Positions 17,194 to 63,181 of a DNA stretch of 64,000 nt are shown here, piece by piece. Below the pieces are notes generated by a model. It was not told the DNA's origin. It saw only the letters and a list, made by a program, of their open reading frames with translations, and searched no databases. Positions within the stretch are counted from its first letter, which is position 1. Every line of letters starts with the position of its first letter. Location: contig JBAYKW010000003.1 of NCBI GenBank assembly GCA_041664365.1, positions 28,696 through 92,695 of the forward strand. The letters run 5' to 3'. The DNA is from Patescibacteria group bacterium (GTDB lineage Bacteria; Patescibacteriota; Patescibacteriia; UM-FILTER-42-10). The position numbers and the translations under genes are program-made.

Positions 17194-17199
17194 ATACTC

Positions 17200-18744: not shown

Positions 18745-19611
18745 TTGACACATTGGGGTTATTATGATATAATTGAGGCGCATATTTTTGAGCTATTTTA
18801 CACTCTAAGAAGAGTTATGGATATAGTCTCATCCCAGGAAAATAAAGATAAAAAGACACAAATAGATTCGCGAAAAAGGCAGAATATTATATTTGGAGCG
18901 CTTTTGTTTGTGGGATCTAGTGCTTTAATTCTAGGTATTTTCCAAATTTCGAAAACTATTACTTCCCCCCTCGCCGGATCCGATTATCAGGACGTTGATG
19001 ACAGTACATTGGTAAATGATGATCCTGACTACCAACAGTTGGTTTTTCTTAAAGGAAAAGATACGGATCAAGACGGATTAAATGATTATGATGAGCTCAA
19101 TATATACGAAACCAGCCCGTATGTTGCGGATTCAGACAGTGATAATATCTCAGACAAAGAAGAACTGGACAGTGGTAATGATCCGAACTGCCCGAAAGGA
19201 AAAACATGTGTAATCACAACGGCTGAAACAGATCCGACAGCAAACAGCAATAATAATTCCGGAGCAACAGCGCCTGAAATATCGTCTGCAGAACTGAGGG
19301 CCACATTGAAAGAGATCGGCGCACCGGCAAATATCGTTGATGCAATGGATGATGCGACACTAAGATCAGTCTATCAGGAAACTGTTATTGATACCGGCAT
19401 AGATTTGGATGATCTGACCGGGAACACAAATAGCGGGGCGCCTACTGAGTCAGCAGGACAGGAAATAACGGTGGATGCTTTGCAGAAGCTGGATGCCGCG
19501 CAGATCAGGCAACTGCTGATCAGCAGTGGAATCAGTGAGTCCGAACTAAGTCAGGTGGATGACGAAACTTTAGTGCTTTTATACTCGCAAGTTTTACAGG
19601 AACAATTATAA
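18745..19611 (+). CDS. Membrane-anchored protein with thrombospondin type-3-like Ca-binding Asp-rich repeats
   Basis: TM segment IIFGALLFVGSSALILGIF; DTDQDGLNDYDELNIYETSPYVADSDSDNISDKEELDSGNDPNCP. The start may instead be the internal Met at 18817. Confidence 0.5.
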   Translation: MTHWGYYDIIEAHIFELFYTLRRVMDIVSSQENKDKKTQIDSRKRQNIIFGALLFVGSSALILGIFQISKTITSPLAGSDYQDVDDSTLVNDDPDYQQLVFLKGKDTDQDGLNDYDELNIYETSPYVADSDSDNISDKEELDSGNDPNCPKGKTCVITTAETDPTANSNNNSGATAPEISSAELRATLKEIGAPANIVDAMDDATLRSVYQETVIDTGIDLDDLTGNTNSGAPTESAGQEITVDALQKLDAAQIRQLLISSGISESELSQVDDETLVLLYSQVLQEQL

Positions 19612-19644
19612 TTTTCCAGGTTTTAATTATTACAACCAAGTAAT

Positions 19645-22600
19645 ATGCCGAGCAACCAAAAAAATCCAAAACGCCATTTTAAAAAATCAATATTTGGTGT
19701 TTTTATTTTCGTTGCTTTTTTCGTGCAGCTTTTTTTATTAGCGCCAAAACCGGCGAACGCAATTTTTGGAGTTGGGGATGTTACATTTTCCACTGTTATT
19801 GGAGATATTCCGGCAAAGTTGTGGAACGCAGTAACCTCAGCTGTAAAAAAATCAGGAGATATTGCTTATAAAAATGCACTGAAAACATTTACCCAGCAAC
19901 TTGCTTATGATGCTGCTGTTAAAATTGCCAGCGGAGCGGCGGGCCAACAACCGTTATTTAATACTAAGCCGTTTAGTAAATCAATCACAGATGCTGCCAA
20001 TGCGGCGGTCGGTGATTATCTTGACCAGATAACTACAGCAGCTTGGGGTAAAAGTCTTTGCGACATAGACCCGAAACTGAAAATTTCAATCCAGGCATCA
20101 ATCAATGTTGATTTGGGGTACGCAGGACCGCCAAGGCAGGCAAAGTGTACACTTTCCTCAATCACGAGCAGGTTGGGTAAGAAGAGCCTGAATGATTTTT
20201 ATGAAGTGGATGCGAAACTGGGTTTTGCCATTAAAGGCGTGGATCCTGCCCAGCTTTCCCAAGCTCTACTCAAAGGATTCCCGGAAATGTTCGGCGAGGA
20301 CCAGGCGGAAATTTCCCAGTACCTTTCGGTCTATAGAGGGGCAATGACTGAAAAGGAAAAAGCGGAAAAAGCGGAAGAAGCAAAACAGGCGAAGGATTTT
20401 AATAATCTAGTTAGTGCGATTACCGGTGATACTAAAACACCGGCGGCACAGGTTGAGGCAGTGGCGGAAGTTGCATTAACGGAAACAACAACACCTGAAA
20501 AAGTAACAACCGGTTCTATAATTGCTGACATGATCGGTGTGTTTAGTAATACTTTGGTTAAGAAGTATATGGAATTTATCTTGGTTAAAGGTTTAAACCC
20601 GAATGCGGACAGCACCGGATCAGTTCAGGGTAAATTCGGCAGGACATCGGGCATCGCTGCGGCGGAAGCAAAATTTGCATCATTCAACCAGCCTTCACTT
20701 GGTGCCGGAGGATCCGTGGACATTTTAAATACACTATCGACCTGCCCGACGGATTTCGCCGAGCCGGAAAACTGCGCGATTGATCCTAGTTTCCGAACAG
20801 CGGTAGAACAGCAGCTTCGTTTGGAAGAAGCGATTGAATCAGGCTACATTAATGGTGACAAGCCTTTCGGTTATGGAGATGGTGGAGCCCAGTTGAATTA
20901 CCAGGAGGGTTATCCATACCGCAGTTTGGTCCTGCTTAGAAGGTATCGGGTGATCCCGGTAAGTTGGGAACTGGCTGCATCGTACGTCAGAGAATTCGGG
21001 GGAGGAACTAAAACCCTGAATGAATTAATCAGAGAGTACGACGATCCAGCATCACAGTACTATCAGTTAATTGATCCGGATTGGGTTTTGAAAGCACCGG
21101 CCACGATGTGTGTCAATAGCGGTTACAATGAAACGTTTCTTTTTGATGAATATATTGATGAAGACGGAATAAATGAGACGCCAAAAATCCGCCAAATCCA
21201 ACGAAACACATCATGCGTTGATGATCAGTCCTGTATTGTAGAAGACGGCAATGGTAACTGCCAGCAGTATGGCTACTGTACCAAAGAAGATCCGATTTGG
21301 CGGTTTAACGGTGAATCGTGCCCTGATTATTATAATACTTGTACAACCTATACCAACAGACAGGGTCAGCCCGCTTCATATCTGGCGAAGACATTGGACT
21401 TTAACGGCTGTTCTGCGGATAATGTCGGTTGTCAGTGGTATTGTTCGGAATATAATACTACCGATGAAAGATGGGAATGTTATTATAATGATGATGGCGC
21501 TGCCGGCACGGAGGACTATGGCTATTGGAATTATGATCCGAATTCTCCGGGCGGTGGAATTGCAGAGCCAGCCTTGGCCTCAAGCTGGTTATCGCATCTG
21601 AATGCCAATGCGGAGAGTTGTACTGCCGGAGCGGACGGATGTAGTGAATTTGTTAGGACCGACCATGGCTCCAACTTAATCAGCAATGCCAGTTTTGAAT
21701 ATTATACAGGCACCCCCGACGATGGTAATGCAGATATTTTCACTAATTCATGGTCCGCTGTAAACGGAGCAGTTACCGAAGCGGATACGATCACTTCGCT
21801 GGGTGTTTCCCCATATTCAGACGTAACGGTTATGAATCTGCATTCAGCTGCTGTGCCTGGACCTTATATAATCTATGGAATTGATGCCGGGTCACCTGTC
21901 AGAAACAGGATATTTACGTATTCTTTTTATGCAATGCGAGATCCGGATCTGATTAATCCTGCGTGTACAGATACCGCTCGATTAGAACTATTACAGGCGG
22001 TCGGCCCTGCGTTGGCCTCAACAACTATAGATAATCTGAATGATCAATGGCAGAGATATCAAGTCACATATGCACATCCTGATTCATTCAATCCTGCCGT
22101 TTCCTATTTACTATTAAACATTGTTCCTGACACCGGCTGTAATATAATTATAGACGCCGCCAAAATAGAAGAAGCGGAAAGTGCCGGCCAGTATGAAAAT
22201 TATGGAGCGATAAATAGAGTTTATTTAACCGGAGAGCGGGAAAGTTGTAATCCGGATGATGTCGGGTGCCAGAACTATACACCGCTTGCCGGTGGTTCCG
22301 TGATCCCTGGGCAGGTTAGACCACAAGATCAGTGTGATAGTGCAGATGTCGGTTGCAAAGCTTTTGAGGAGGTCAAACTAACCAACGTTGTACCGCGCCC
22401 GGATAATATTGAACGTTCCGGCATGTATTGTTATGGCGGGGCAAACCAGGGCAATGCGTGTTTAGTTGCCGGTGATTGTCCGGCAGGATACTGCCTCCCG
22501 GCTATATCATTTGTTCCGGACACAGGCGCGCAATGTTCCGCAGCCTATGTTGGTTGTGAAGAATTTACGAATTTGGATGAAGTTTCGGCCGGCGGAGAAG

Positions 22601-25600
22601 GAAAGGAATATTATTCTTTTCTGAAACAATGCGTTACGCCAGCCGATACGGACATTGCTTCATATTATGCCTGGGAAGGTGACGCGGTAGCCGGATACCA
22701 GTTAAGAGCATTCCGACTGAAACGCAGTGATGTTGGCGGTGCATTTCCGGCCCCTTGTACTCATTTGGAAGTCGGACCGACACTCCCGCTGGATTGTGAA
22801 GATTCATTAAACACTGTTGATGATTGTACTAGTGAGTACGGTATAAATCCTGATTGTACACAATTCTTTGATTCAAATTTAAATATATTTTATCGGTATA
22901 AAACGCAAACTATATCAGTAACAGAAGACTGCCACCCGGAGAGAAACAGTATAGACAACCTGACGTATTATGGATCGCCAAGCGAAAGCCGGTCATGTCC
23001 GGCACAATTTGCCGGGTGCAGAGAATACCTGGGAAATGCGGGATACAATTACCGACAGGTTAATTATGATGATTTTGAAGACGGTACCAATCAGGGTTGG
23101 AGTGCAGGTGTTGTAAGTCCTGAATCAGTTATGCTTAACGGTCATTCACTGAACATAGCGTCACCAAATCCAGTGAATAAGGAACCGCTTGATGAAACAC
23201 TGGAAAATAAAAAGACATATATGTTGAGTTTCTGGGCAAAAGGTACCAGCGTAGCCCCGACTATTCGGTTTAACCACGCATTAAATAATAATGGTTATTT
23301 TGCTGATGCGGATCCGGCAACATTCCCCGCTTCAGTAGTTTTGACTAGTGATTGGAATAAATATACACTTGGTCCGGTGAATATTGATACTAATGACTAC
23401 GTTGGTAATGTCGTGCCGGATGGTTTGGTTATTGAGGGCTTAGCCGGTGTTAATGACTATTTTGATAACATCGAACTGATTGAGACATCCAGCAGTCAAT
23501 ACCTGATCCGCGGGTCGTTTAGAACCTGTTATGGATCGGAAAACTGCGAGGCGTATTCTGATTGGGAAAATGTAACTCACAATCTAAAATCATTCACAAA
23601 ATTGTGTTCGGAAGACACGGTGGGATGTGAAGCACTAATTGATACACAGAATAACAGTAATCCGTTTACACAGGTATACGGCAGTGGAGTGCTTAGCGCC
23701 GAAACTATTCCGATTGATCAAGTGGTTACACTGATTAATGATCCGGATAAATATTGTGCTGCCGAGGATAAAGGGTGTAAAAAACTCGGTAAACCAATCA
23801 TTGATGCGAATAACAATCTTGTTTCTTATGAAGATACCTATTTAAAGGACAACCCGGAAGATTATGATGATATCTGGTGTGGTCAAACCGAGGTAGGTTG
23901 TGAGGAATACGGCTTTTCAGATAGCGGTGGTAAAACATTTTTCAAACAACCAAACGGCCGGACGTGTGAATACAAGCAACTACTGGGGACATATGAATTT
24001 AATTGGTATGTTGTCGGCACCGAAGAGGTCTGCGATCAGACACCAACTCCGCCTAATCCGGCGATTCCAGCATTTGTTTGTACGGAAGGAGCACTAGGCG
24101 GACCGCCGGCAGGGACAATTTGTGATCCGGAAAATCCAGTCGCCTGTACAGGATCAAGCACCTGCATACCGTGGGTCGGTTTGTGCGACTCGAAAGCTAA
24201 CGGATGCACGGCGTATAGCGATCCGATGGATCCGGTTGGCTGTCAGCCAAACTGCCCGTTTGAAAACGGAGCGTTTTATGATGAAAATTGCGTGGAGACG
24301 CCGGGCGGACTTCCGGGATGTGCGACATACTACAATATAAAATCAACAGTTGATTCAACCAGTTGTAACGGTGTGGTCAACGAAGAAAAGGGATGTAAGC
24401 TGTTTAGTGACACGCAACAATCTCTCAACTATTCAGCGGATTTAAGTCCGGATGGTATAAAAAATTATTGTGATCTTACTGATCCATCAACTTATGGAAA
24501 TGAATGCGATGTTGATGCTGATTGCGGAACCGGAATTTGTTTCCCGAATCCGGAATTTGGAGCGCCGGTATTGGGCAGAGACGGCACTTGCGTCGGCGGG
24601 ACGAACCCGGGTGATCCTTGCACTAATGCAGCGGATTGTCTTGATGCAGGTGTCTGTGATCCATATGCCATTACTGCCGAGAGTCCGTCGCTTGATTCCA
24701 ACACTGTATTGAAGGTGAAAAGAGACCGGGTTTGTGAAGAATGGCTATATTGTAAAACTTCATTTGAAGTGGACGACGAAACGGATACCGACGGTGACGG
24801 CAAAACAAAAGAAGATGTTTGTTTTGAAATCGGTCTGTGCGATGAGGCTGGGTCAAACGGTTCCTGTGCCAGCACGATTGATACGGCGCCGGTCAATGTA
24901 ACCGGCGATACCCCGGCGTATCCTCTGGATGAATTCCAGAACCTTTCCGGTTTTGTCAGCGCCGGTCTGCATTATGGCTGTCGAACCGACCATTCTGTGG
25001 CTTGCACGGTTGCCACCGAAGCTACTGCCTGCGCCGGCTATGGGGATGAATGCGATATTATTGAAGGATACTATCCTTATTCGGAGATGTATGAAGTAGG
25101 GTTGGGCGGAGCGGTAACCAAGGATTTGGTACGTTTTGGCAATTTTGAATCTGACGCATTATCCCAGTTTATGGTTTGTAGTTCAGATATGGGGAATAAA
25201 GATTCTTCTTGTATTATAAATGAACACTGTATACCAGATGAGGATTCGCCAACTGATCCTGATTGTCTTGATGTAAATGATGAACAAACATGGACAACTC
25301 TTTACCCGAATATTGGAATGGACAGTGCTATTTCAGTTGTTGAAGGAGATACGATCAAAGATGGAAATGCGGCACTCGATGAAAACAACTATCTGCTTTA
25401 TACGGCAGGATCACTGGGGGTGTGCGATAGTGACTCAACTAACGAAGGAACGCTATGTACCCTAGCCGGTACTGAATGTACTGGCGGGGGACTTTGTTCG
25501 TTCACTGGATTGGGTGTGAAGACCAGCTTGGGAACGAATATATTAAATAAAGCTGAATATATTGCCAGTCTTGATTTCCGATTTATCAATATGCCTGAAG

Positions 25601-28600
25601 CAGGGCAGGAACAAATTTCAATCTCTCTTGCACAAATTGATAGTTTCACCGGCAATATTGTTGGAGAAAATATTTTAGGCTATTTCGATGGTTCAACCGG
25701 CTGGACGGAGCAAATTCTGAAACCGGTGGTGGTTACGGGTATACCGGATGAAAATGCGGAAACTTTCCTTTTGATTAGAAGTATGAGTGGTAATGTTCCC
25801 TTTGCTATCGATAATGTTTCTATGAAGCCGGCACTGACAGTGAAAGCATCTGAATCAGCCGGAATTCGTGGTGATTATTACACTCTTATCTATGATAATT
25901 CAGGTATTCCCGGTCTGTCATATAGTTATTCAGGTACAACTACATATACTGGAACTGATCTTCAAATCAATGAATATGAATATTGTGTCCATGGTGATTA
26001 TGCATATCTACCACCACTTTGTACAGTACATAATGTACCTACAGGGCAAAGATGGTCTACTCCAAATGAGACTACGACATGGAATGGCGGAATCCTAATT
26101 GACTCCAGCGGTTTCCATACGGTATTTGTGAATATTAACGACGGTTTCAGGCTCTATGTTGATGATATGGTTACACCAATATTTGACCAATATGGCGGTG
26201 GTGTTGCAACTCAAGGGTATATGTTTAGCGGATATTTTACCGCCGGGTGGCATCCTATAAAACTCGAGTGGATTAATAATGGAGATGACGGCGGTGTGCA
26301 GCTAGGGAGTGTGGCCGGTACTTATACAAACAATGATTGTAATGGAACCATTCTTCCTAATTTCTGCCAGCGCTATTTTGACGGTGTTGATCAAGGACCA
26401 ATCGGAGCGGATATTGCTGATGGTGCTCGCGATTTCCCGATACCTTTGAATTATATAATCGGTCCAAGCCATCTGACAACACAACTTGATAGGGTATTCG
26501 GCACATATTTAGGAACGCATGTCAGTGAGTATCTGGATTACGATGCCGCGAGCATGGGCCCGCACTTGATTGACGTAACTGGTGCAGATGAGAAAATAGC
26601 GGTGCGCTGGACCGGAAAACTGCTAGTGGAAACAGCCGGTAATCATCAGTTCCAACTGCAACACGACGACGGAGTTAGGTTCTTTATAGATGACCTCGAT
26701 ACGCCAATCCCAGCTTCAAATGTGTGGAGTGATGGGAGTGGTACGGTTACATTTACTGTCAATGGACTTGATACCGGATCGCATCCAATAAAAATAGAAT
26801 ATTACCAAAATGAAGGAAATTCCAGTTTAAGTTTCTTATGGCAACCACCGGGAGCACCGGGGATGACAGTCGTTCCGACAACAAATTTATCAACGACAGA
26901 TGGTGATCAACAATATATCAAACGCTCCTGCCGTGCTTATCCTAGGGAGGATTCGGAAGTCTGCCAATATACCAACAGCGACCTGGTGCAGTTCAACGGC
27001 TGGCAGGGGTACTGTATTGAGACAGACCCGACCAACCCGAATAAATGTATCACCTGGTGGCCGGTAGATGCGATCTCCGGCGAGTCCAGTGTATTCGGTA
27101 CAGTGGAACCGGCCGGTTATCAAGGCAGGAGACCTCTTTATATGTGCGTGGAGTCAACTGGTAATTATAATGAAACAAGTACGTTTAATGACTTAATGGT
27201 TAATGGCGCGCAGTCATCTTGTCCGGATGATGAAGAGGGAGACATTAACATGCCGGTTTCAGAAATGCTCGGTCAGTTTTATGGGTATCGTCATCCGATA
27301 AAAACAAATTGGGCAAATATTCAGGCTGGTGCGGATAGTGATTGTGATGGTGGAGAAGATACAGCCTGTGGCATGGTAGAGAATCATGCTCCTTGTAGAG
27401 TAATTGGTGGAGGAACAAGCGCGAATCTCTATGGCTTTTGCGGCTGTACTGGTGGGGCAACAATGAGTTATTTAGTTGTCGATGCTTTAGAACAGGATAA
27501 ATTCTATGAATGGGAAATAGACCGAATTGAATGGACGGCACAAAGATCAAGTCATGGCGATTGGCCACAGGGTCAAACAACTTGGATCGCAAATAAAGCA
27601 AATGATTGGACAGTGCAGGGAGATGAAAGTAACTGGTTCAAAGATAAAGACGCATCGATTGAATGCGGTTCTCAAAACTGTTTCAATTTCAAAGTAAATT
27701 TTGACGGTAATCAATTGTTAGACAGTTTCAGAGTGCATATGGTTGATGGAAGTCAAGCTTGGGGTGGTATGTGGGTAACAGGTACGATATATTTGCGTGA
27801 TGTTTGTAAGGAAGTCGCTAAAGTTGTCAGTTCAACCGACGACAGTGCATGGGCGCAAAGAACAGCATCTGCCAGCTCATATATCATTCAGGACCTTTTA
27901 TATTCTTACAGTTCTGACGCTGCACCGTTTGGCGCAATGGTTGCCGGAGCAGGTGCTGATCCGGGTGAATCGTGGGGCAAAGATTCTTCTGGTCTACTAC
28001 CGGTATTACTTGAAGGACTTGATAGTTCACCATCGCCTGCAGTAAACAACACCAGGCTGGGGCAGTCGTACAGCTGTAGTGCAAGATGTAATAATAGCCC
28101 CACTACTTATTGTGAAGTAAACGCGGATTGTCCTCTAGGTGGTTTATGCGATCGTACCAGTTGTGTGCCAAAAGTTTGTTTTGGTGGAGCTAACGATTCA
28201 GTACATCGCAGTGTACAATATTCCTGTTCTTCGGATGCGGATTGTCAGGGAACAGAAGATGATCGCGCAGTCTGTGTAGGAGTTGGTTTATGTAGTGGTG
28301 ATCAGACGATTGAATGTACGACTGATACAGATTGCGGAACAGCAGGTTCATGTGTTGGCGCTGATGCGAAGCTGAAGGGTGATGGGCCAGTAAATACAGG
28401 AAATGCATGGGCTCTAGAAAGGTTACAAAGAATATTTGCCAATGTCTATGGATCATGGCGCTGGGATGATGCAACTGGTTCTTATGTTGATGTCCCTGAT
28501 TTTGGCGGTTCGTGGAGACAGGTATGGAATGATAAATTCGATAATATGGTTTTATGTAATTTAAACGGAACAGGACCGCGCCCAATTTGGCCAGGACCAG

Positions 28601-29031
28601 AAACTGACTACTGCGCGATTTTACCGAAGGTTAGTAATATACTGGTCAACGGAACAACCGGCGATGTGGTGATGAATGGTGGAGGTTCAGTTACACTGTC
28701 GTTTACCAGTTTTGTTGATGCTGAGCAGGAGGAGTTGAAGAATATAATTGTGGACTGGGGTGATGGTTCAACGCCAACCTCTATTGTGTGGAATGGCGCG
28801 CCGAAATCTGATCCGAGTCAACCGCATCTATTCTCACATACCTATGATGATGTTGTTGGTCCAGGGGCGGGGGAATACCAGATTGAAATCATGCTGAAAG
28901 ACAATTGGGGTTTCTGCAACAATGCTGTTTTGCCTCCGGGTCCAAATTATAGACAATGTGATATTAATGGATTATTTCCTTACCATGAGTATACAGAATA
29001 TGACGGTATAATCCGTGTCTACCCAAGCTAA
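19645..29031 (+). CDS. Giant (3128 aa) secreted Cys-rich surface protein with two PA14 domains
   Basis: Signal/anchor FGVFIFVAFFVQLFLLAPKPANA. More than 150 Cys in CxxC/CxxxxC arrays. PA14-like segments at about nt 25861-26290 (GIRGDYY..RLYVDDMV..WHPIKLEWINNGDDG) and about 26560-26860 (VRWTGKLL..HQFQLQHDDGVRFFIDD..HPIKIEYYQNEG..LWQPPG). Confidence 0.7.
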   Translation: MPSNQKNPKRHFKKSIFGVFIFVAFFVQLFLLAPKPANAIFGVGDVTFSTVIGDIPAKLWNAVTSAVKKSGDIAYKNALKTFTQQLAYDAAVKIASGAAGQQPLFNTKPFSKSITDAANAAVGDYLDQITTAAWGKSLCDIDPKLKISIQASINVDLGYAGPPRQAKCTLSSITSRLGKKSLNDFYEVDAKLGFAIKGVDPAQLSQALLKGFPEMFGEDQAEISQYLSVYRGAMTEKEKAEKAEEAKQAKDFNNLVSAITGDTKTPAAQVEAVAEVALTETTTPEKVTTGSIIADMIGVFSNTLVKKYMEFILVKGLNPNADSTGSVQGKFGRTSGIAAAEAKFASFNQPSLGAGGSVDILNTLSTCPTDFAEPENCAIDPSFRTAVEQQLRLEEAIESGYINGDKPFGYGDGGAQLNYQEGYPYRSLVLLRRYRVIPVSWELAASYVREFGGGTKTLNELIREYDDPASQYYQLIDPDWVLKAPATMCVNSGYNETFLFDEYIDEDGINETPKIRQIQRNTSCVDDQSCIVEDGNGNCQQYGYCTKEDPIWRFNGESCPDYYNTCTTYTNRQGQPASYLAKTLDFNGCSADNVGCQWYCSEYNTTDERWECYYNDDGAAGTEDYGYWNYDPNSPGGGIAEPALASSWLSHLNANAESCTAGADGCSEFVRTDHGSNLISNASFEYYTGTPDDGNADIFTNSWSAVNGAVTEADTITSLGVSPYSDVTVMNLHSAAVPGPYIIYGIDAGSPVRNRIFTYSFYAMRDPDLINPACTDTARLELLQAVGPALASTTIDNLNDQWQRYQVTYAHPDSFNPAVSYLLLNIVPDTGCNIIIDAAKIEEAESAGQYENYGAINRVYLTGERESCNPDDVGCQNYTPLAGGSVIPGQVRPQDQCDSADVGCKAFEEVKLTNVVPRPDNIERSGMYCYGGANQGNACLVAGDCPAGYCLPAISFVPDTGAQCSAAYVGCEEFTNLDEVSAGGEGKEYYSFLKQCVTPADTDIASYYAWEGDAVAGYQLRAFRLKRSDVGGAFPAPCTHLEVGPTLPLDCEDSLNTVDDCTSEYGINPDCTQFFDSNLNIFYRYKTQTISVTEDCHPERNSIDNLTYYGSPSESRSCPAQFAGCREYLGNAGYNYRQVNYDDFEDGTNQGWSAGVVSPESVMLNGHSLNIASPNPVNKEPLDETLENKKTYMLSFWAKGTSVAPTIRFNHALNNNGYFADADPATFPASVVLTSDWNKYTLGPVNIDTNDYVGNVVPDGLVIEGLAGVNDYFDNIELIETSSSQYLIRGSFRTCYGSENCEAYSDWENVTHNLKSFTKLCSEDTVGCEALIDTQNNSNPFTQVYGSGVLSAETIPIDQVVTLINDPDKYCAAEDKGCKKLGKPIIDANNNLVSYEDTYLKDNPEDYDDIWCGQTEVGCEEYGFSDSGGKTFFKQPNGRTCEYKQLLGTYEFNWYVVGTEEVCDQTPTPPNPAIPAFVCTEGALGGPPAGTICDPENPVACTGSSTCIPWVGLCDSKANGCTAYSDPMDPVGCQPNCPFENGAFYDENCVETPGGLPGCATYYNIKSTVDSTSCNGVVNEEKGCKLFSDTQQSLNYSADLSPDGIKNYCDLTDPSTYGNECDVDADCGTGICFPNPEFGAPVLGRDGTCVGGTNPGDPCTNAADCLDAGVCDPYAITAESPSLDSNTVLKVKRDRVCEEWLYCKTSFEVDDETDTDGDGKTKEDVCFEIGLCDEAGSNGSCASTIDTAPVNVTGDTPAYPLDEFQNLSGFVSAGLHYGCRTDHSVACTVATEATACAGYGDECDIIEGYYPYSEMYEVGLGGAVTKDLVRFGNFESDALSQFMVCSSDMGNKDSSCIINEHCIPDEDSPTDPDCLDVNDEQTWTTLYPNIGMDSAISVVEGDTIKDGNAALDENNYLLYTAGSLGVCDSDSTNEGTLCTLAGTECTGGGLCSFTGLGVKTSLGTNILNKAEYIASLDFRFINMPEAGQEQISISLAQIDSFTGNIVGENILGYFDGSTGWTEQILKPVVVTGIPDENAETFLLIRSMSGNVPFAIDNVSMKPALTVKASESAGIRGDYYTLIYDNSGIPGLSYSYSGTTTYTGTDLQINEYEYCVHGDYAYLPPLCTVHNVPTGQRWSTPNETTTWNGGILIDSSGFHTVFVNINDGFRLYVDDMVTPIFDQYGGGVATQGYMFSGYFTAGWHPIKLEWINNGDDGGVQLGSVAGTYTNNDCNGTILPNFCQRYFDGVDQGPIGADIADGARDFPIPLNYIIGPSHLTTQLDRVFGTYLGTHVSEYLDYDAASMGPHLIDVTGADEKIAVRWTGKLLVETAGNHQFQLQHDDGVRFFIDDLDTPIPASNVWSDGSGTVTFTVNGLDTGSHPIKIEYYQNEGNSSLSFLWQPPGAPGMTVVPTTNLSTTDGDQQYIKRSCRAYPREDSEVCQYTNSDLVQFNGWQGYCIETDPTNPNKCITWWPVDAISGESSVFGTVEPAGYQGRRPLYMCVESTGNYNETSTFNDLMVNGAQSSCPDDEEGDINMPVSEMLGQFYGYRHPIKTNWANIQAGADSDCDGGEDTACGMVENHAPCRVIGGGTSANLYGFCGCTGGATMSYLVVDALEQDKFYEWEIDRIEWTAQRSSHGDWPQGQTTWIANKANDWTVQGDESNWFKDKDASIECGSQNCFNFKVNFDGNQLLDSFRVHMVDGSQAWGGMWVTGTIYLRDVCKEVAKVVSSTDDSAWAQRTASASSYIIQDLLYSYSSDAAPFGAMVAGAGADPGESWGKDSSGLLPVLLEGLDSSPSPAVNNTRLGQSYSCSARCNNSPTTYCEVNADCPLGGLCDRTSCVPKVCFGGANDSVHRSVQYSCSSDADCQGTEDDRAVCVGVGLCSGDQTIECTTDTDCGTAGSCVGADAKLKGDGPVNTGNAWALERLQRIFANVYGSWRWDDATGSYVDVPDFGGSWRQVWNDKFDNMVLCNLNGTGPRPIWPGPETDYCAILPKVSNILVNGTTGDVVMNGGGSVTLSFTSFVDAEQEELKNIIVDWGDGSTPTSIVWNGAPKSDPSQPHLFSHTYDDVVGPGAGEYQIEIMLKDNWGFCNNAVLPPGPNYRQCDINGLFPYHEYTEYDGIIRVYPS

Positions 29032-29043
29032 GCAAAATAAATA

Positions 29044-32000
29044 ATGTTCAGAAAGAATTTTTCTCGATTCAGAAAAGCACTGTTACCAATTATTGGTGTA
29101 TTGCTTTTAGTTGTGTTTGTCGGGTTGTTGATGCCAGGGGAAACAAAAGCAAATTGGGTTGCAGATGGATTTATCAGTGTCATTGGTTCGTTCGGCGGTA
29201 AAATACTGGAGTTACTCGGTGCATTGCTCGGTCTGCTGATTGAAATGACGATCAAGATATTCCGCTTCAATAATTTCGTCAATATGAAAGCTCCACCGGC
29301 GGTGCATATCGGTTGGACAATCGTCAGAGATCTGTCCAACATGATGTTTATCGTAATACTGATCGTGATTGCTTTCGGTACCATTATGAAGATCCAGGCA
29401 TACCATGCCCGCAGTCTTTTGACGAAAATGATTATCATGATAATCCTGATAAATTTCAGCAAGACAATCACAGGATTGTTTGTGGATTTCTCACAGGTGA
29501 TCATGCTGACATTTGTGGATTCGTTCAGTGATTCAGCTCCGATTGTGCTTACGGTCGGCCTGAATTTGAATCAAATGGTCAGTTTTGCCAAGGAAACGGA
29601 TGGAAAATTAGGGGTTGTATCTGTGCTAGTTGCGGTTTTTCTGGCTAACGCCATGCTGGTGGTCGCGATTGCGGTCATCCTTGCCATGCTGGTTATCCTT
29701 ATCTATAGAATCCTGAATATTTGGATTTTAGTTATACTTTCCCCGATAGCTTATGTTGCATCGGTCCTACCTAACACGTCGCGGTATGCCTCCAGATGGT
29801 GGTCGGAGCTGGGAAAGAATCTCTCATCCGGACCGATTTTGGCTTTCTTTTTATGGTTGTCGCTTTCCATCATTTCCACCAGCGCCGGTGCGCCGATTGA
29901 TTTATCTGATCCGAGCATTGGTGGAATAACCAACGAACCTATTTCTGATGAGCTTGATGATACACAACTGCCGAAAGGTGCTTCGGCAATTATGAATACT
30001 CAGAACATGTTCAACTACATAATTACCATCGCCCTTTTATTAACCGGAATCATGTTGACACAAGAGTTAGGGGTGATGGGAGGAAGTACAGCTGCTAAAT
30101 TCCCGGCTATGGCGAAAAAAATCGGCATGGGCGCCGTCACCAAGCCGTTTAGTAAAGGATCACAAGCATGGGCATGGGGTGCCAGAAAGATCAGAGCCGG
30201 CGGAATAGGCAAGAAGAATGCGGAAGGAAGGGGTTTTATGCAAGGAGTTGATCTGAATCCGGCAAGTGTGCTTCGCACCATGAAGGGTGGTTTTGACCGA
30301 AAACGCGATCAGGAAGAACGTACAGGAAGGGTTGAAACCGGCAGAAGGCTGGAACAAGGAGGATTTACGGGAGGGATATTGGGGGCGGGATCATCATCCT
30401 GGGTGGATAATTATGCCCAAGGGTTTTTATATAATAAAGGTATTAAGCATCTGTTTAAAGGAAAGCAAGGTGATATTACGGCTATGGATACGGAAAGACA
30501 CCGCCAGGAAGAAGAAATGAAAAAACTGCAGGAAATGAGTCAACAGCAAAATACCACGGAAGCATATACTGATATAGCTGGTGGCGATTTGGATCATGCC
30601 GTTGGGGAGGTTGAGAGTATTGATTTTGAAATTAAAGGGATAAAAGTTCAGGCCGAGGCGGCAGATAACGTTTATCATACACCCGATAATCTGGATGCGG
30701 AGGCATTGGAAATTGAAAATCAAGTTAGTAGCGGTATGTTGTTACCGGGTGATATTAAATCACTTGAAGCGCAATCAAAAGTCCTCCGTAAGCAATCTGC
30801 AGATACCGGGGACATTAAACTTTCTGAAGAGGCGGATGCAATTGATGTAAGGATCGGGGCCGGTGTGTTGTCTGATGACGAAAAAGGTTATCTTGCAGAA
30901 TCCGCCAAAGCTAAACGTGCGGAAGCTAATCGACTCCGTGAAAGTCGCAGATTGGCAGAGGGCCAAGAGAAACCGTCCGATCTGGACGATCAGGCATTTC
31001 AGATCCAGAATACAATTAGTTCTGGTGTTTGGACGCCGGAACAAATACAATCAATCAAAAGAGAAGCCAATGATAAACGTGAGGAAGCAGAAGTAATCAG
31101 AAGAGAAGATCCTACTGGGGCTGATGCAGTGGCACAAGCAAGGGTGGCTGCCTTGGAAAAAGAAGCTGGTGAAATAGATACACTAGTTGATCCGGCTGCA
31201 AAGAAATTGGATGAAATGGAAGAGCTCAAAGCAAAAGCTAAAGCCAAACGTGATGAAGCAGCAGCAACTACGGATACTACAAAGCAAATAGCTTTGGAAA
31301 AAGAAGCGGTTGATATAGAGGCAGAAATCAAAGATGTTGAAGTATCGCCGGGAGAAAGTTCGCGACTATTTTCGATTGCTGAAGCTAAACGCAAGGATTC
31401 AGAAAAACTACGAGCCGTAGAACCGGCAGAAAGAATAGCGGAATTGAGTGCCCGACGAGAAAAAGCAATAGCGGAAAAAGCAAAGAAACAGTCGGAGTTA
31501 GACGAATTCAACAATATGACAGATGGGATAGATGCTAGTGGTAAAAAAGTAACAAGATCGGAAAGACAGCGTGAATTTGCACGAGCTAGACTGAAAGAAA
31601 TGGCTGCGGAAAAGGAAGCGGCCCGCCAAGCTCTGTTGGATGGTGGACTTAGCGATGCTCAAAAAGATGACAGAAATAGTCAAATCAAAGCTAAAGACAT
31701 AAAGATAAAAGTAGTTACTGATGATATAAATAGGAAAGCTGCTTTAGGCGAAAGTACAGATCTTTTGAGAAAAATGCTGGCAGAGCTGAAAAAAGACAGA
31801 AACGCTTTACAAGTTGATGAAACTACGGGAAAAGTTAGCGATAACGCCAAGGCAACTGACAAAGAAAGAGAAGCCAACGAGCCGCAGATAGAATTTTTGA
31901 AAAAAGAAGCGGATAAATTCAATGAAATCGCAGGCAGGGAAGATATGGATGAGACTGTGCGGAAAAACTATGCGGACGAAGCAGCAAAAAAACATAAAAT

Positions 32001-32976
32001 AATTGTTGATCTTGAGGAAAGAATCAAAGAAGAATCCGCCTTTCGCCCGATCGACTTTTTAGCAAACTTAGAAAGAAGAAGCATGGTTAGTGAAGCAGCA
32101 AGAAAGATAGATACTACTAACGAAGACGAATTGATGGCATTGATGCAAAATGCTGTTGCGAGGGGGAATGTAACAGATGCATCTGCGGTGGCAATGTCGG
32201 CGGCAAAAGCAGCGCATTTAAATGAAGTGGTTATGGATCATCGTGCGCAATCGGACTGGTATGAAGATGTGGACGGCAAGCTTACAACAATTAAGTCAGA
32301 TGGGGCTAGGATGGTTTTCAAAGCCGGCCAGTCCATGTCAGCCGGTATTGAGGGCCTGCATGTATTTATGAATGAAATATTTGAGAAACAACTGGGCTAT
32401 AGTCATCAATCTACATTGGCGCTGGAGAGTGATTTATCGAGCGCGGCGGAACATGTTGAACATTGGACTTTTGGACAAGCAGTTGGCACATCTCCTGATG
32501 GTCAGTTTAAGCAGAGATCCCGCGCGGAACAAGGCGCGAGAGTGGCGACAGAAAGATCCAAAAGAGATCCCGCAGCTTTATACCGCCTCGGTAACCGGCT
32601 CTCACTTTCTACTGAAATGTGGAAGGATGACTCCGACCATACTAAAGGACGCGAGTCGGTACTCAATGAATATGCTGTTCCGGAAATTATGAATTGGCAA
32701 AGATATTCATTTCTTGCTGAGAGACAGAATATAAATGCTAATGCGGCAAAGCATTTACTTGGTGAAAGAAATAAACCGCTATTTGACCTTATGAGGGAAA
32801 AGGCAATAAGTAAAGGTACATTTGATGGGGATGTGAAGGCAGGAGGAAAGGGTGGATTCAGAAAATTATACGATGACTTACTAATACTTGCTCAATCGGA
32901 GGATAAGGAAAGCGGAACTCAGGCTGATATTAGAAGATCACAACAATTGATGAGGAGTTTACGTATGTTAAAGTAA
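29044..32976 (+). CDS. Polytopic membrane protein (about 8 TM in the first 330 aa, VirB6/TrbL/TcpH-like topology) with a charged coiled-coil tail of about 850 aa
   Basis: Hydropathy pattern. The tail is E/K/A/R-rich heptad-like sequence. The VirB6-like call is an inference from topology and from T4SS genes elsewhere in the window. Confidence 0.4.
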   Translation: MFRKNFSRFRKALLPIIGVLLLVVFVGLLMPGETKANWVADGFISVIGSFGGKILELLGALLGLLIEMTIKIFRFNNFVNMKAPPAVHIGWTIVRDLSNMMFIVILIVIAFGTIMKIQAYHARSLLTKMIIMIILINFSKTITGLFVDFSQVIMLTFVDSFSDSAPIVLTVGLNLNQMVSFAKETDGKLGVVSVLVAVFLANAMLVVAIAVILAMLVILIYRILNIWILVILSPIAYVASVLPNTSRYASRWWSELGKNLSSGPILAFFLWLSLSIISTSAGAPIDLSDPSIGGITNEPISDELDDTQLPKGASAIMNTQNMFNYIITIALLLTGIMLTQELGVMGGSTAAKFPAMAKKIGMGAVTKPFSKGSQAWAWGARKIRAGGIGKKNAEGRGFMQGVDLNPASVLRTMKGGFDRKRDQEERTGRVETGRRLEQGGFTGGILGAGSSSWVDNYAQGFLYNKGIKHLFKGKQGDITAMDTERHRQEEEMKKLQEMSQQQNTTEAYTDIAGGDLDHAVGEVESIDFEIKGIKVQAEAADNVYHTPDNLDAEALEIENQVSSGMLLPGDIKSLEAQSKVLRKQSADTGDIKLSEEADAIDVRIGAGVLSDDEKGYLAESAKAKRAEANRLRESRRLAEGQEKPSDLDDQAFQIQNTISSGVWTPEQIQSIKREANDKREEAEVIRREDPTGADAVAQARVAALEKEAGEIDTLVDPAAKKLDEMEELKAKAKAKRDEAAATTDTTKQIALEKEAVDIEAEIKDVEVSPGESSRLFSIAEAKRKDSEKLRAVEPAERIAELSARREKAIAEKAKKQSELDEFNNMTDGIDASGKKVTRSERQREFARARLKEMAAEKEAARQALLDGGLSDAQKDDRNSQIKAKDIKIKVVTDDINRKAALGESTDLLRKMLAELKKDRNALQVDETTGKVSDNAKATDKEREANEPQIEFLKKEADKFNEIAGREDMDETVRKNYADEAAKKHKIIVDLEERIKEESAFRPIDFLANLERRSMVSEAARKIDTTNEDELMALMQNAVARGNVTDASAVAMSAAKAAHLNEVVMDHRAQSDWYEDVDGKLTTIKSDGARMVFKAGQSMSAGIEGLHVFMNEIFEKQLGYSHQSTLALESDLSSAAEHVEHWTFGQAVGTSPDGQFKQRSRAEQGARVATERSKRDPAALYRLGNRLSLSTEMWKDDSDHTKGRESVLNEYAVPEIMNWQRYSFLAERQNINANAAKHLLGERNKPLFDLMREKAISKGTFDGDVKAGGKGGFRKLYDDLLILAQSEDKESGTQADIRRSQQLMRSLRMLK

Positions 32977-32988
32977 AGGGATAATAAT

Positions 32989-34350
32989 ATGACTGATAAA
33001 ATAAATACAAATAATATACCGGATTTAGAAGATTTAAAATTACTTGAAAAATACAAGGAATATATTGATTATGTTGAATTTAACAACGAGATAGCACTGG
33101 CCAAAGATATCTCCGACATGCTGCTTGCTCTGTTCGGGCATACCCCGAATTTCAATGTAAAAAATCCGGATTTATTTAAGGAATATCAGTCTATTTTAAT
33201 CCGCGCGCGCTGGGTCGCTCTTCCACTTCTGAAAGACCCGGATGTATTGGAGATGTTTGAAAAATATTACATGGAAGGGATGGCAATGTCGGAATTGGTG
33301 GATATCCAGGAAAAACTGAAAATTAATTTATTGAATCACTTATTACCGGAGGATCGGGATAAGCTGAAACTGGCAATCAGAAAAGCTTTGGAAAGAAATG
33401 TCCAGTTAATAACGAAAGACAAGCTTCAGGCGGATGAGGAAAAAAGAGATCCGACAATTGCAAATTGGATTTTGGATTTTACTTCAGAATTGGGGACCAA
33501 TATGTTTGACCGGGTAAAGGAGAACCAATATTTTGTAAATGGAAATAATACAAAAAAACTGTCAGAAACGGAAAAAACAAATCTGAGAGTACTACTTAAT
33601 ATCTATCGCCGTTGTGGCAGATCGTCTTTGACTCTTGAGGGAAATGAAGAACCAATTCCAGTTGATACAGAAAACAGAGTCGGTACCATCCGCGAAGGCC
33701 AGTTTGAAGAGATAAAAATGAAGGATTGGATAGCATTGGTGGAAAAGATGAAAAGTATCCGTAACATGAATTATAATGTTGATGATGCGCCGGCGGAAAT
33801 GACCGAAACGGAGAAAGAATTACAGCGGGAAAAACTGATTATGGAATTTCTCGGATCAGAAGGGGAGAGGATTATGATCCATAACGAGGAGAACAGCCTC
33901 GAGGAGACTAGTAATACAGGATTACAGGCGCTTGTTTCGATACTGATGGATGCGGTAGATCGGAAAGATAAATACAAAGCAATAGCTGCATTGCGCGTAA
34001 TCGCGGATAAGGGTAATTTGACGGAAGAATTTAAACTGAATGAAAGAGTCAGCGCATTGGCTAAAGAAATATTGCAAAAGCAATACAAACCGGAAATAAC
34101 CGCTGATTTTCAGCGTAATGGTTTCACGGCGCCCTATTTAAGTATATTTCTACAGCATATATTCCGGGAGAAAATGAATCTGGATGATGCGGAGTCCGCC
34201 CGATTTGGCGTACAGCTGGAAAATATTTTGGTGGAAAAGGGGCAGACATCCGTACAGGGGATGGTCTATGGTGATTTGATGAGCGGAAAATATATGTGGC
34301 AAGCAATAAAAGATGAAGGAGTTAAACTGTCAATTCCGGATCAGATCTAG
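32989..34350 (+). CDS. Hypothetical protein, no recognisable motifs
   Basis: Long ORF in the same orientation, tightly spaced with its neighbours. Confidence 0.45.
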   Translation: MTDKINTNNIPDLEDLKLLEKYKEYIDYVEFNNEIALAKDISDMLLALFGHTPNFNVKNPDLFKEYQSILIRARWVALPLLKDPDVLEMFEKYYMEGMAMSELVDIQEKLKINLLNHLLPEDRDKLKLAIRKALERNVQLITKDKLQADEEKRDPTIANWILDFTSELGTNMFDRVKENQYFVNGNNTKKLSETEKTNLRVLLNIYRRCGRSSLTLEGNEEPIPVDTENRVGTIREGQFEEIKMKDWIALVEKMKSIRNMNYNVDDAPAEMTETEKELQREKLIMEFLGSEGERIMIHNEENSLEETSNTGLQALVSILMDAVDRKDKYKAIAALRVIADKGNLTEEFKLNERVSALAKEILQKQYKPEITADFQRNGFTAPYLSIFLQHIFREKMNLDDAESARFGVQLENILVEKGQTSVQGMVYGDLMSGKYMWQAIKDEGVKLSIPDQI

Positions 34351-34437: not shown

Positions 34438-35484
34438 ATGCGAAGAATATATATTCTATCAGAAAAAAATATAGCTGAGTATTTATTGAACCAAGTCAAT
34501 AAATCGCTTCCTTTCAGGTTATTAAAAATTACCGAAGTCACGGAGATAACTAAATATACTAACGCTAGTTTTGTTTACCGGGTGCACTGCATTACCAATC
34601 AGGGGAAAAAGACTTTATTTCTTAAGCAGTCAGATGGTTATACGAAAAGAAACAGGAGAATTCGCGTGGATCCCGAGAGGGTAATAATTGAAGGAGAAAA
34701 GCTGAAGTTATTAGAATCATTGTTTGGTAAAGGAATTGTGCCTTTGGTATTATATGTTGATCTGAAAAATTATATTTTGGTGATGGATGATATTCAGGGG
34801 AAAAAGAAGATACTGATCGAAGAATTTGATCAGCATAAAGTGTATCCTCAGCTGGCACGGAAATTTGGCATTTTTTTTGGCACTCTGCACGGTAAAACAT
34901 ATAACACCCCACCCGTTTTCAACCGCTCGGCCTGGCAAAAAAGAATTTATCGTCTATGGAGAAACTGGATTCTATTTGGAGCGAAAAAGATCCTGCCCGA
35001 TAAAACAATTCGTGCGTTTATCCGACAGTCTGATCGGGCAAAAAAATCCTTGATCTGGGGAGATCCGGTCAACAAAAATATCTTTGTTAATCGGCAAAAT
35101 TTTTCGGTACTGGATTTTGATTTTGCTATGTATCACGATCCTGCTCTGGATAACGGGGTGTTTCTGGCGCACTGGGTTATAAAAATGTTGGAAGGAAAAA
35201 AGAAAATTGCCATTGATTGCCGGAATTTTATCATAAATTTCACCAAAGCATATCTTAAAACAACTATGACCATGGGTTTGTCAGTGCAAGAGCGCGACGG
35301 CATTATGAAAAGAACCATTGTCTGGACGGGTGTTTACATGGTCTCTCGTACGGACGGGCGGTCGGGCTCTTATTACAAAAAGTCACCGGTCTGGGAAAGC
35401 CAAATCAGAGAAACAGGTTTGGCGCTAATTACAAAGAAAAAAAATAATACCGCTGATTGGTTTAGAAAAGCTTTGACAAAATAA
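34438..35484 (+). CDS. Protein-kinase-like fold phosphotransferase (APH/choline-kinase/MtnK-like)
   Basis: Catalytic loop-like IWGDPVNKNIF (D..N) and the DFD-type motif VLDFDFAMYHDPALD. Confidence 0.5.
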   Translation: MRRIYILSEKNIAEYLLNQVNKSLPFRLLKITEVTEITKYTNASFVYRVHCITNQGKKTLFLKQSDGYTKRNRRIRVDPERVIIEGEKLKLLESLFGKGIVPLVLYVDLKNYILVMDDIQGKKKILIEEFDQHKVYPQLARKFGIFFGTLHGKTYNTPPVFNRSAWQKRIYRLWRNWILFGAKKILPDKTIRAFIRQSDRAKKSLIWGDPVNKNIFVNRQNFSVLDFDFAMYHDPALDNGVFLAHWVIKMLEGKKKIAIDCRNFIINFTKAYLKTTMTMGLSVQERDGIMKRTIVWTGVYMVSRTDGRSGSYYKKSPVWESQIRETGLALITKKKNNTADWFRKALTK

Positions 35485-47409: not shown

Positions 47410-47420
47410 AACAAAACAAT

Positions 47421-61840: not shown

Positions 61841-63181
61841 ATGGAGGATCAAAAAAACAAAATCAACACAGCAAAATCGGTGAAAGTAAATGTTGCTTCC
61901 GGAAAGAAAGACGATGAAGAAAAGCAGATTTTAAAAGGTGCCAGAATTCTAATTAAAGACCAAAAAGGGCAGTACAGCTATGTAAAAGGAGCCAAATTAA
62001 TGGGTGAGGACGAGGTTGTTGTTGCTTCTGCGCCGGTGGTTTCCGCGCCAACAAAGAGTAAAATAGATCCATCCATTATCAAAAAAGCGGTTGCGCAGTT
62101 GGCTAATCAAAAGATGATAACGCCATCCGTTAAACCGGCCCCCCTACCAAGAAAACAGGACGAAGTAAGTACGGTAACAGCTTCTCAGCTAAAACCGGTT
62201 TTTCAAGATCGGATGGTTCCGAATAAAGGAGTTAACGCAAGTTTTTATTTTGATGTAGAGGATGAGGAGGAAGTGAAAAAAATGCATAATGAGGAAATTT
62301 CCTCATCGGCCAGAACTATTGATTACGGCACAGTTGTTAAAGAGATTGCAAATCAGGTCGGATTAAATTTTACTGATGAATCTTTGCAAAAAAGATTTGA
62401 AAGCCTAATAACATCCCGTCTGAGAGATATTCGAACTTCCGTCCAATTAAGAGAGCTTTTGGTCCGTTCAAAAAAAGTCGGCGGTTTAGAACTTGAACCT
62501 GAGATTGCGGAATCGATCGTGAAAATAACCGCAGAGAAGGCGCTGAGTTTTCATAATGAAACCGAGATCAAAAAAATTGAATACCGGCAGATGATGAAGT
62601 TGCAGGAAGCGGAAAAAGAGAGAGAGCAGCAGGAAAGGATGAGAAAAGCAGTAGCAAATGAACAGATTAAGAAAGCGGTTCTCAATCTGCATTTGCAGAA
62701 GAAAAATGAATTAGAAAATGCGGTCAAACCGGAACCACAGCCGGTCATTAACAAGCCGATTATTGATAGACGGATTCCAATTATCCCAAAGATGCAAAGA
62801 CCGATGCCGGTTTTTGACAGCAGGCCAAAAATTGTGGATATCAAGACGCCGCCAAGATTAATGGGTCCGATAGAGGAAATAAGAAGCTTGAATTTGGTGG
62901 ATTTTAGAAGGCTCGGCGGGAACCCCCAGCAGTCAATTGAAAAAATAAAAGAGAAAGTTGATCTGTTGGAAGAGGAATCATATACCAAGAAAGCGGAAGC
63001 GATCCAAGCCTGGAAGAAATCGGAGATTTATCAGATATATCTAGACATCGGTAATGAAGGTATGAATAAAGGAAAATCCGTCCAGGATGTGATAACAAGC
63101 AGGAAAATGGACGGCCGTTCCTATCTGACCGATGAAGAGTTTGAAGCGGTAGGGGATCTAAATAGACAGTTAAGATTTTAA
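61841..63181 (+). CDS. Hypothetical K/E-rich protein
   Basis: ORF directly abutting upstream and downstream genes. Confidence 0.4.
   Translation: MEDQKNKINTAKSVKVNVASGKKDDEEKQILKGARILIKDQKGQYSYVKGAKLMGEDEVVVASAPVVSAPTKSKIDPSIIKKAVAQLANQKMITPSVKPAPLPRKQDEVSTVTASQLKPVFQDRMVPNKGVNASFYFDVEDEEEVKKMHNEEISSSARTIDYGTVVKEIANQVGLNFTDESLQKRFESLITSRLRDIRTSVQLRELLVRSKKVGGLELEPEIAESIVKITAEKALSFHNETEIKKIEYRQMMKLQEAEKEREQQERMRKAVANEQIKKAVLNLHLQKKNELENAVKPEPQPVINKPIIDRRIPIIPKMQRPMPVFDSRPKIVDIKTPPRLMGPIEEIRSLNLVDFRRLGGNPQQSIEKIKEKVDLLEEESYTKKAEAIQAWKKSEIYQIYLDIGNEGMNKGKSVQDVITSRKMDGRSYLTDEEFEAVGDLNRQLRF

Follow-up and report, generated by a model that had tools for sequence, protein, structure and literature searches.

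Patescibacteria account for a large part of the diversity of bacteria and seem to live on other cells. Their type IV secretion system (T4SS) has its relatives among the monoderm MPF-FATA conjugation systems (Quinonero-Coronel et al., 2025; PMC12102498) and is essential in Southlakia, a cultured Saccharibacterium and the one genetically tractable species of the group (Wang et al., 2023; PMC10633639), where both VirB6-like proteins are essential as well. A systematic survey of the Patescibacterial T4SS found no adhesin (none of the PrgB type was detected), and the part of its supplements available to us holds no entries for CBM_4_9, PA14, or TSP3 (PMC12102498). It has also been published that KsgA is frequent near virB4, and a catalog of novel gene families that appeared in Nature in 2023 includes unnamed transmembrane families beside virB6 in Patescibacteria. 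Here, we analyzed a 64,000-nucleotide stretch of the genome of a Patescibacteria group bacterium (hereafter the window; assembly GCA_041664365.1, contig JBAYKW010000003.1, positions 28,696 to 92,695 of the forward strand) with a focus on four consecutive genes, g1 to g4 (18817-34350), the second of which codes for an exported protein of exceptional length (g2, hereafter the giant). This block is very probably part of a T4SS gene neighborhood, and we consider it fairly probable that it represents the promoter-proximal half of a chromosomal Patescibacterial T4SS locus, with the giant as a surface component that would bind glycans and contact the host.

The locus resembles the described Patescibacterial T4SS in encoding an extended VirB6, PrgI/VirB3, a TrsD/TraC-like protein and, in relatives, VirB4 and VirB2-like pilins, in being chromosomal, and in having KsgA nearby. 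A further shared feature is that the scanned open reading frames (ORFs) of the window yielded neither a relaxase nor a coupling protein. Unlike the described systems, this locus is divided, with 27 kb between its two parts, and neither of the two published accounts (PMC10633639, PMC12102498) describes a conserved giant, a thrombospondin type 3 (TSP3) repeat protein such as g1, or the g4 family. In Southlakia, specifically, the cluster SEML1_0006-0014 lacks a protein of ~3000 residues. What appears to be new is therefore a set of conserved accessory genes (the TSP3 protein, the giant lectin protein, and g4) on a known secretion system. Targeted literature searches returned no prior description of the giant as a T4SS partner.

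Two other described groups of proteins share features with the giant. Like the PrgB-type adhesins of Gram-positive conjugative T4SSs (pCF10), the giant is a large, exported protein of the cell surface whose gene accompanies a T4SS of the monoderm type, and it is proposed to provide the contact between cells on which pilus-less systems depend; unlike them, it has no LPXTG motif or C-terminal anchor, and is built from carbohydrate-binding module (CBM) and PA14 lectin domains in a disulfide-rich chain. No relationship to PrgB in sequence or domains was found. The giant is at most an analog of PrgB, not a homolog, and we rejected a reading of it as a PrgB-type or sortase-anchored adhesin, given the lack of LPXTG and of related Pfam domains. 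With PA14- and CBM-containing glycan sensors and adhesins, such as the PA14 modules of the RsgI anti-sigma factors of Clostridium thermocellum (6qdi, 6qe7), and with the CBM4 and CBM22 modules of xylanases and laminarinases it shares folds and families. It differs from these in being a non-enzymatic, Cys-rich protein of 3128 residues encoded in the T4SS locus of an ultra-small episymbiont lineage.

Gene Order in Related Loci

Gene order was compared in ~160 loci drawn from two scans. The first was started from an alignment of the VirB6 N-terminal domain and run against one genome per GTDB species, with the best 80 retained (80 species). The second, reciprocal scan was started from the N-terminal part of the giant and run against metagenomes, again retaining the best 80 loci. 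ORFs in these loci were called by a simple in-house procedure and mapped with phmmer against the window proteins.

A recurrent order emerged that comprised g1, the giant, small ORFs in some loci, a VirB6-like gene (g3 in the window), g4, a conserved gene here termed T446, PrgI, a TraC-like gene, VirB4, a gene of ~200 codons, and a Cys-containing pilin-like gene. In the scan started from VirB6, a giant homolog was upstream of VirB6 in 44 of 51 loci, g1 preceded a complete giant in 24 of 27, and g4 adjoined VirB6 in 52 of 65. The core T4SS genes (T446, PrgI, TraC-like, and VirB4) followed downstream in 46 of 53 loci, such that the VirB6-like gene is co-encoded with VirB3 and VirB4 in these loci; in the window, PrgI begins at 63185. 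The reciprocal scan gave the same picture, with a VirB6-like gene downstream of the complete giant in 45 of 51 loci (in 18, 100 bp or less separates the two genes) and g1 just upstream of the giant in 65 of 69. Collectively, gene order in both samples shows g1, the giant, g3, and g4 to be passed on together as one block.

In the window, the second half of the T4SS locus begins at 61841 and comprises T446, PrgI, and the start of the TraC-like gene (Table 1). T446 lies between g4 and PrgI in most related loci. The window PrgI is 55% identical to the PrgI of a related locus (L003), where the TraC-like homolog (16972-17673) carries the Pfam TraC-like domain. VirB4 (~630 residues) follows the TraC-like gene in relatives and is present in 45 related loci; the window ends before it. 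In the complete Nomurabacteria genome CP060223, three large exoproteins, one with CBM_4_9, precede the VirB6-like gene, and the genes 3' of it code for proteins of 467 and 445 residues, PrgI, TraC-like, VirB4 (DUF87/P-loop_TraG), T4SS_pilin, and DsbA. The 445-residue protein was taken as the T446 homolog, and the gene at the g4 position belongs to the g4 family by transitivity. Seven loci (L004-L006, L031, L051, L056, and L064) are split as in the window, with no core T4SS gene in the downstream flank; the giant, VirB6, and g4 stay together even where the locus splits. Just 5' of the second half, the window encodes a separate 315-residue ORF (60892-61839) that resembles, by eye, the N-terminal domain of PPDK-type proteins that binds phosphoenolpyruvate (PEP)/pyruvate.

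The named relatives included Kerfeld-, Falkow-, Komeili-, and Buchananbacteria, which we take to be members of the GTDB class ABY1. The typical Patescibacterial T4SS order was also found in many GTDB records titled 'uncultured Gammaproteobacteria bacterium' or 'Planctomycetota bacterium' (L011-L014, L018, L024-L026, L082, and others), titles that are probably wrong.

A first-pass annotation of this DNA had placed five genes between 18745 and 34350 and had regarded them as a surface-adhesion module. The co-directional, tightly packed arrangement that it described is real: all of these ORFs are on the plus strand, and the intergenic gaps from g1 to g5 are, in order, 33, 12, 12, and 87 nucleotides. 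Only four genes fall in that interval, however, as the kinase gene (g5) lies outside of it, and the identification of g3 as a protein of the VirB6/TrbL type, together with the gene order in relatives, makes the block the conserved 5' part of a T4SS locus rather than a module of its own. Conservation of the block among relatives, which that annotation had proposed as a check, extends to g1, the giant, g3, and g4; the kinase is present beside them in the closest relatives only.

Table 1. Positions of genes, domains, and the promoter in the window. aa, residues.
Feature	Position	Strand	Description or evidence
Sigma-70-type promoter ahead of g1	18745..18773	+	perfect TTGACA-17-TGnTATAAT (extended -10), 12/12 match + TG
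g1	18817..19611	+	264-aa single-pass membrane protein; TM (transmembrane) segment and orthologue alignment
g2 (giant)	19645..29031	+	3128 aa, exported, 120 Cys
Giant, conserved core, aa ~50-1500	19792..24144	+	covered by ~85-120 of 120 homologs
Giant, first CBM4-type beta-jelly-roll module, aa ~699-850	21739..22194	+	family profile vs 1gui, 1.2e-6, at aa ~700-860
Giant, second CBM_4_9/CBM22-like module, aa ~1142-1241	23068..23367	+	family profile vs CBM22 structure 4xup, 1.6e-9, at aa ~1130-1270
Giant, two tandem PA14 domains, aa ~2060-2215 and ~2275-2420	25822..26904	+	inside variable region, aa ~1800-2400
Giant, C-terminal Cys-rich module, aa 2421-3128	26905..29028	+	ends in PKD-like W-G-D-G beta domain (by eye)
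g3, extended VirB6/TrbL-like T4SS membrane subunit	29044..32976	+	1310 aa
g4	32989..34350	+	453 aa, soluble, mostly alpha-helical
g5, kinase-like (APH)	34438..35484	+	348 aa
T446, conserved Patescibacterial T4SS-locus protein	61841..63181	+	E 3.7e-47 to CP060223 gene between g4 and PrgI
PrgI/VirB3-like T4SS membrane protein	63185..63622	+	Pfam PrgI, E 3.6e-7, 31.1 bits vs cut-off 27
TraC-like/TrsD-like protein, N-terminal part, cut by window end	63640..64000	+	67% identical to the L003 homolog across 123 aa

Promoter and Upstream Neighborhood

The TTG at 18745, given as the start of a listed ORF (18745-19611), is the -35 box of the promoter ahead of g1; translation of g1 really starts at the ATG at 18817, with which the orthologue alignment agrees. 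Promoters of this consensus were identified 5' of g1 orthologues, with a 12/12 match in 15 of 69 loci and an 11/12 match in a further 9, and thus a score of at least 11/12 was obtained in 24 of 69 loci versus none of 69 control stretches of equal length inside the giant gene.

KsgA is encoded directly 5' of g1 in the window, which matches the published observation on KsgA and virB4. More broadly, a neighborhood comprising leucyl-tRNA synthetase (LeuRS), an MFS protein, Sua5, and KsgA recurs upstream of the block in related loci. The LeuRS of the window (12834-16028, 1064 residues) contains an alpha/beta Ser_hydrolase domain (Pfam 5e-18, residues 503-677, nucleotides ~14340-14864) inserted between the editing domain and the KMSKS/anticodon part, and many of the metagenome loci have an ORF of similar size (1000-1190 codons) 5' of the g1-giant block.

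The VirB6-Like Protein and Its Neighbors

The extended VirB6 class comprises proteins with at least five hydrophobic helices and a large C-proximal hydrophilic domain (PMC12857230). g3 fits both features: its polytopic N-terminal domain of ~380 residues (nucleotides 29044-30183) has 7-8 hydrophobic segments within residues 12-339 (Kyte-Doolittle), and the remaining ~930-970 residues form a hydrophilic, charged tail that is free of Cys and poor in Pro and Gly. In size (~1000-1300 residues) it is similar to SEML1_0011 and SEML1_0013 of Southlakia, with 998 and 1088 residues. It departs from the class in that it scores under every Pfam TrbL threshold and has a highly charged tail that shows little conservation beyond close relatives.

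Direct searches of Pfam, NCBIfam, and PDB with g1, g3, and g4 returned nothing above threshold, and g3, whether whole or as residues 1-400, had no Pfam match (PF04610, PF19590) even at E≤10. The assignment comes from the family. Among 253 g3 homologs, those with a source name are from Patescibacteria-type metagenome-assembled genomes (MAGs); many carry a precomputed PF04610 or PF19590 (30-40% identity, E 1e-50 to 1e-80), one is named 'type IV secretion system protein', and Pfam TrbL is matched by 14 of 36 aligned homologs (best 1.3e-6). Taken together, these family-level similarities establish g3 as a member of the extended VirB6/TrbL T4SS family. The first-pass annotation had described g3 as a protein with eight transmembrane segments and a coiled coil of 850 residues. 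The hydrophobic segments stand, at seven to eight, and the coiled coil is not supported: a crude heptad test identified 181 residues in the tail versus 110 ± 59 in shuffled sequences.

No transmembrane segment was identified in g4, and an AlphaFold2 (AF2) model of this mostly helical protein had a predicted local distance difference test (pLDDT) score of 84; fold comparison of the model gave no informative structural neighbor. The kinase-like nature of g5, also proposed earlier, was borne out by a match to the APH superfamily (E 4.7e-9, 36.8 bits versus a cut-off of 23.2); its score against the S-methyl-5-thioribose kinase (MTRK) equivalog was 52 bits, with a cut-off of 275. g5 is followed by phosphoribosyltransferase (PRTase) and phosphoribosyl pyrophosphate (PRPP) synthetase genes. 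It was considered as a member of the block and rejected, given that it groups with these genes and adjoins the block in the closest relatives only; g5 is a neighboring salvage gene outside the system.

The Giant Exoprotein

The giant begins with a signal peptide (residues 1-39) that ends in an AxA cleavage site, as judged by eye. A check of the sequence identified no LPXTG-like motif, hydrophobic C-terminus, or C-terminal anchor. It had been credited with more than 150 cysteines; the count is 120, or 3.8% of residues, with CX5-6C spacings common, and many of the Cys columns are invariant in family alignments. The 120 homologs listed range from 1757 to 4077 residues; most are unnamed, and all with an organism name are from Patescibacteria, candidate phyla radiation (CPR)-type or unclassified bacterial MAGs. 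The family of its N-terminal domain comprises 1180 cluster representatives at E≤1e-3, and among the best 150 of these nearly all are 1500-3900 residues long.

Searches of Pfam, NCBIfam, and PDB with most of the giant returned nothing above threshold. The conserved core consists of a helical N-terminal region that is modeled with low confidence, an alpha/beta domain (residues 360-480), and Cys-rich segments, and AF2 is confident in the core only at residues 360-480, 670-860, and 970-1120. Two CBM-like modules lie within the core. In the window protein itself the second of these scores E 6.2e-4 to 2.7e-3 against Pfam CBM_4_9, which is under the cut-off; PF02018 is precomputed in most giant homologs. 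A beta-jelly-roll fold together with profile similarity places both modules among the CBM4/9/22 families.

The two PA14 domains that had been claimed for the giant are present, one by a Pfam match (residues 2314-2408, E 2.6e-15, 56.9 bits versus a cut-off of 24) and the second, at residues ~2146-2212, by paralogy to the first (BLASTP E 4e-11) and similarity to PDB 6qdi (E 1.2e-3), which aligns to the giant in two stretches. The PA14 region is covered by only 7-14 of the 120 homologs (~10%), with the pair itself in ~8-14, and dockerin-type repeats replace PA14 in the variable region of others. Judged from this distribution, the PA14 pair is a lineage-specific insert rather than the defining feature of the giant. 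The PA14 and CBM folds and family matches imply that the giant would recognize carbohydrates.

The C-terminal module is homologous to the last 735 residues of a 1545-residue protein that adjoins VirB6 in CP060223 (E 2.9e-58) and is covered by 18-95 of the 120 homologs. A profile of this module had no match in PDB or Pfam.

Conservation among the four closest relatives was examined in bins of 100 residues. Identity was lowest in the bins that cover the two CBM-like modules (33% for the first and 43% for the second), the PA14 pair (46-54%), and some stretches of the C-terminal module, and it reached 81-86% at residues 301-600, 1701-1800, and 2401-2500. At six loci (L003, L008, L010, L098, L141, and L144) the giant is divided into two or three consecutive ORFs that comprise an N-terminal core of ~1850 residues, a part of ~1100-1500 residues, and a part of ~1300-1560 residues with the C-terminal module. 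Such divided giants may be genuine separate subunits or may result from frameshifts in the assemblies.

DsbA-like genes were identified in the flanks of 22 of the ~160 loci, which fits the many conserved cysteines of the exported giant and the pilin-like proteins and agrees with a requirement for disulfides to be formed outside the cell. DsbA/thioredoxin-like genes are located downstream of VirB4 in some loci (L013, L017, L019, L021, L024-L026, L030, L049, and L082; at 22655-23189 in L003) and upstream of g1 in others (L108, L110, L117, and L130, among others). None was found among the window ORFs that were compared.

The TSP3 Repeat Protein

g1 is predicted to be a type II single-pass membrane protein with a basic N-terminus that precedes the membrane segment. 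Its part outside of the membrane carries a pair of bacterial TSP3 Ca-binding repeats (nucleotides ~19060-19164) together with a CPxGxxC motif, a linker of low complexity, and one or two copies (two in the window protein) of a short helical motif, R-x-LL...DD-x-L. The TSP3 repeats had been noted earlier from the window protein, where TSP3_bac (PF18884) scores below the Pfam cut-off (E 0.018-0.02); they are upheld by the orthologues, 17 of 18 of which match TSP3_bac (best 3e-11). A regular expression for D-x-D-x-D-G-x-x-D-x-x-E identified two motifs in g1 that are invariant across the 18 orthologues.

Proposed Role and Alternative Explanations

Our favored interpretation is that g1-g4 form the promoter-proximal half of the T4SS locus and that the giant contacts the host. 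Under such a mechanism, the strong promoter at 18745 would drive g1 to g4, and the giant would be exported by Sec, have its signal peptide cleaved, and be oxidized outside the cell to yield a disulfide-stapled, elongated, multi-domain protein. Its conserved N-terminal region would keep it at the cell surface, where it would probably be held by g1 and/or the external loops of VirB6. The CBM4/22-type and PA14 domains may bind glycans of the host envelope and thereby position the T4SS channel (VirB6, VirB3, and VirB4) against the host. Host specificity would be set by the rapidly diverging lectin domains and by the exchangeable variable region, which has PA14 in the window and dockerin-like or other domains elsewhere. 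In the cytoplasm, the charged, Cys-free tail of VirB6 and the soluble, helical g4 would form a link to the ATPase module. The more specific proposal that the giant acts as a T4SS host-contact adhesin is, in our estimation, evenly balanced. The idea of an adhesin from an episymbiont was put forward in the first-pass annotation, and it is plausible for an exported, lectin-rich protein, although the PA14 pair on which the annotation relied is not what defines the family. More tentative still, and somewhat short of even, is the proposal that g1, the giant, VirB6, and g4 together constitute a host-recognition head of the T4SS whose exchangeable lectin cassettes (CBM4/22, PA14, and dockerin-like) would encode host range.

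Several points weigh against this interpretation. Functional coupling of the giant with the T4SS is deduced from gene order, and the distance between the block and the VirB3/VirB4 part in the window means that physical linkage is not obligatory. Furthermore, ~12-14% of the sampled loci lack the partner in the flank, and both samples, as the best 80 of each scan, are biased toward relatives of the query. For Southlakia, which cannot do without its T4SS, the cluster SEML1_0006-0014 lists no comparable giant. The window g3, CBM modules, and TSP3 repeats all fall under Pfam thresholds, and their assignment is at the level of the family. The N-terminal region proposed as the anchor of the giant is modeled with pLDDT <50, and glycan binding is a prediction from the domains.

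The giant might instead be a general envelope or S-layer-like coat that is uncoupled from the T4SS and lies near it by virtue of a conserved, highly expressed region (LeuRS, MFS, Sua5, and KsgA). That this wider neighborhood is conserved too means that conserved order alone is no proof of shared function; moreover, the promoter is strong, each sampled locus has one gene for the giant (or a series of split genes), and both halves of the locus persist where it is divided. Classical S-layer proteins are poor in cysteine or lack it, however, and 3.8% Cys at invariant positions is difficult to reconcile with such a coat, as is the lack of an SLH or other wall-anchoring domain in Pfam searches of the giant. 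In addition, the gap between the giant and VirB6 is very short (12 nucleotides here and ≤100 bp in 18 loci), which suggests translational coupling, and the module stays with VirB6 and g4 when the locus splits. We therefore regard a coat as unlikely.

Even less probable is that the giant is a secreted, CBM-guided factor that degrades cell walls or acts like a toxin, with T4SS neighbors that are unrelated or merely co-regulated. CBM4/22 and PA14 domains are typical appendages of glycoside hydrolases, as the PDB matches indicate, and the ~1700 residues of the giant with no assigned fold could hide a catalytic domain. However, profile searches of Pfam, NCBIfam, and PDB identified no catalytic domain, the conserved parts are Cys-rich scaffolds that are not enzyme-like, and GHL15/LamG proteins are encoded separately elsewhere in the window. 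A stand-alone operon of five genes that attaches cells independently of a secretion machine would account for the tight co-directional packing, the lectin domains, and the separation of the block from VirB3/VirB4 in this genome and its closest relatives, but it is largely refuted by synteny, in that the block runs on into the T4SS core in 46 of 53 loci, its membrane protein is of the VirB6/TrbL family, its kinase adjoins it in the closest relatives only and groups with the PRTase and PRPP synthetase genes, and its coiled coil is unsupported, leaving it highly improbable.

As a conserved, very large, lectin-rich protein encoded second in the T4SS operon, the giant is a concrete candidate for the element that contacts the host, and it would have a Ca-binding partner in the membrane and another partner in the cytoplasm. 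Its variable lectin region is a sequence feature that might be compared with the identity of hosts in metagenomic data. If the reading as a host-recognition head is right, the exchangeable lectin cassettes would tell which host cell-wall glycans, and hence which hosts, an uncultured CPR bacterium attaches to and exploits. The giant family also marks disulfide-rich exoproteins as a systematic feature of these monoderm cells.

Other Genes in the Window

A second surface-protein cluster is located at 40548-47909 and comprises two tandem 849-residue paralogs with Laminin_G_3 and GHL15 domains, followed by an FG-GAP/fn3 protein (551 residues) and a type IV pilin-like N_methyl/T2SSG protein (162 residues). 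Immediately beyond it, at 47990-56509, are five tandem paralogs (544, 496, 463, 501, and 463 residues), each of which ends in a PEP-utilizers mobile domain and has an N-terminal part with no domain assigned. Two tandem 108-residue paralogous membrane proteins are encoded on the minus strand (59998-60662) beside a histidine kinase and response regulator (57556-59682). Near the start of the window, a guanylate kinase ORF of 450 codons (1372-2724) has its kinase domain confined to residues 5-186, followed by a C-terminal extension of 260 residues with no domain assigned.

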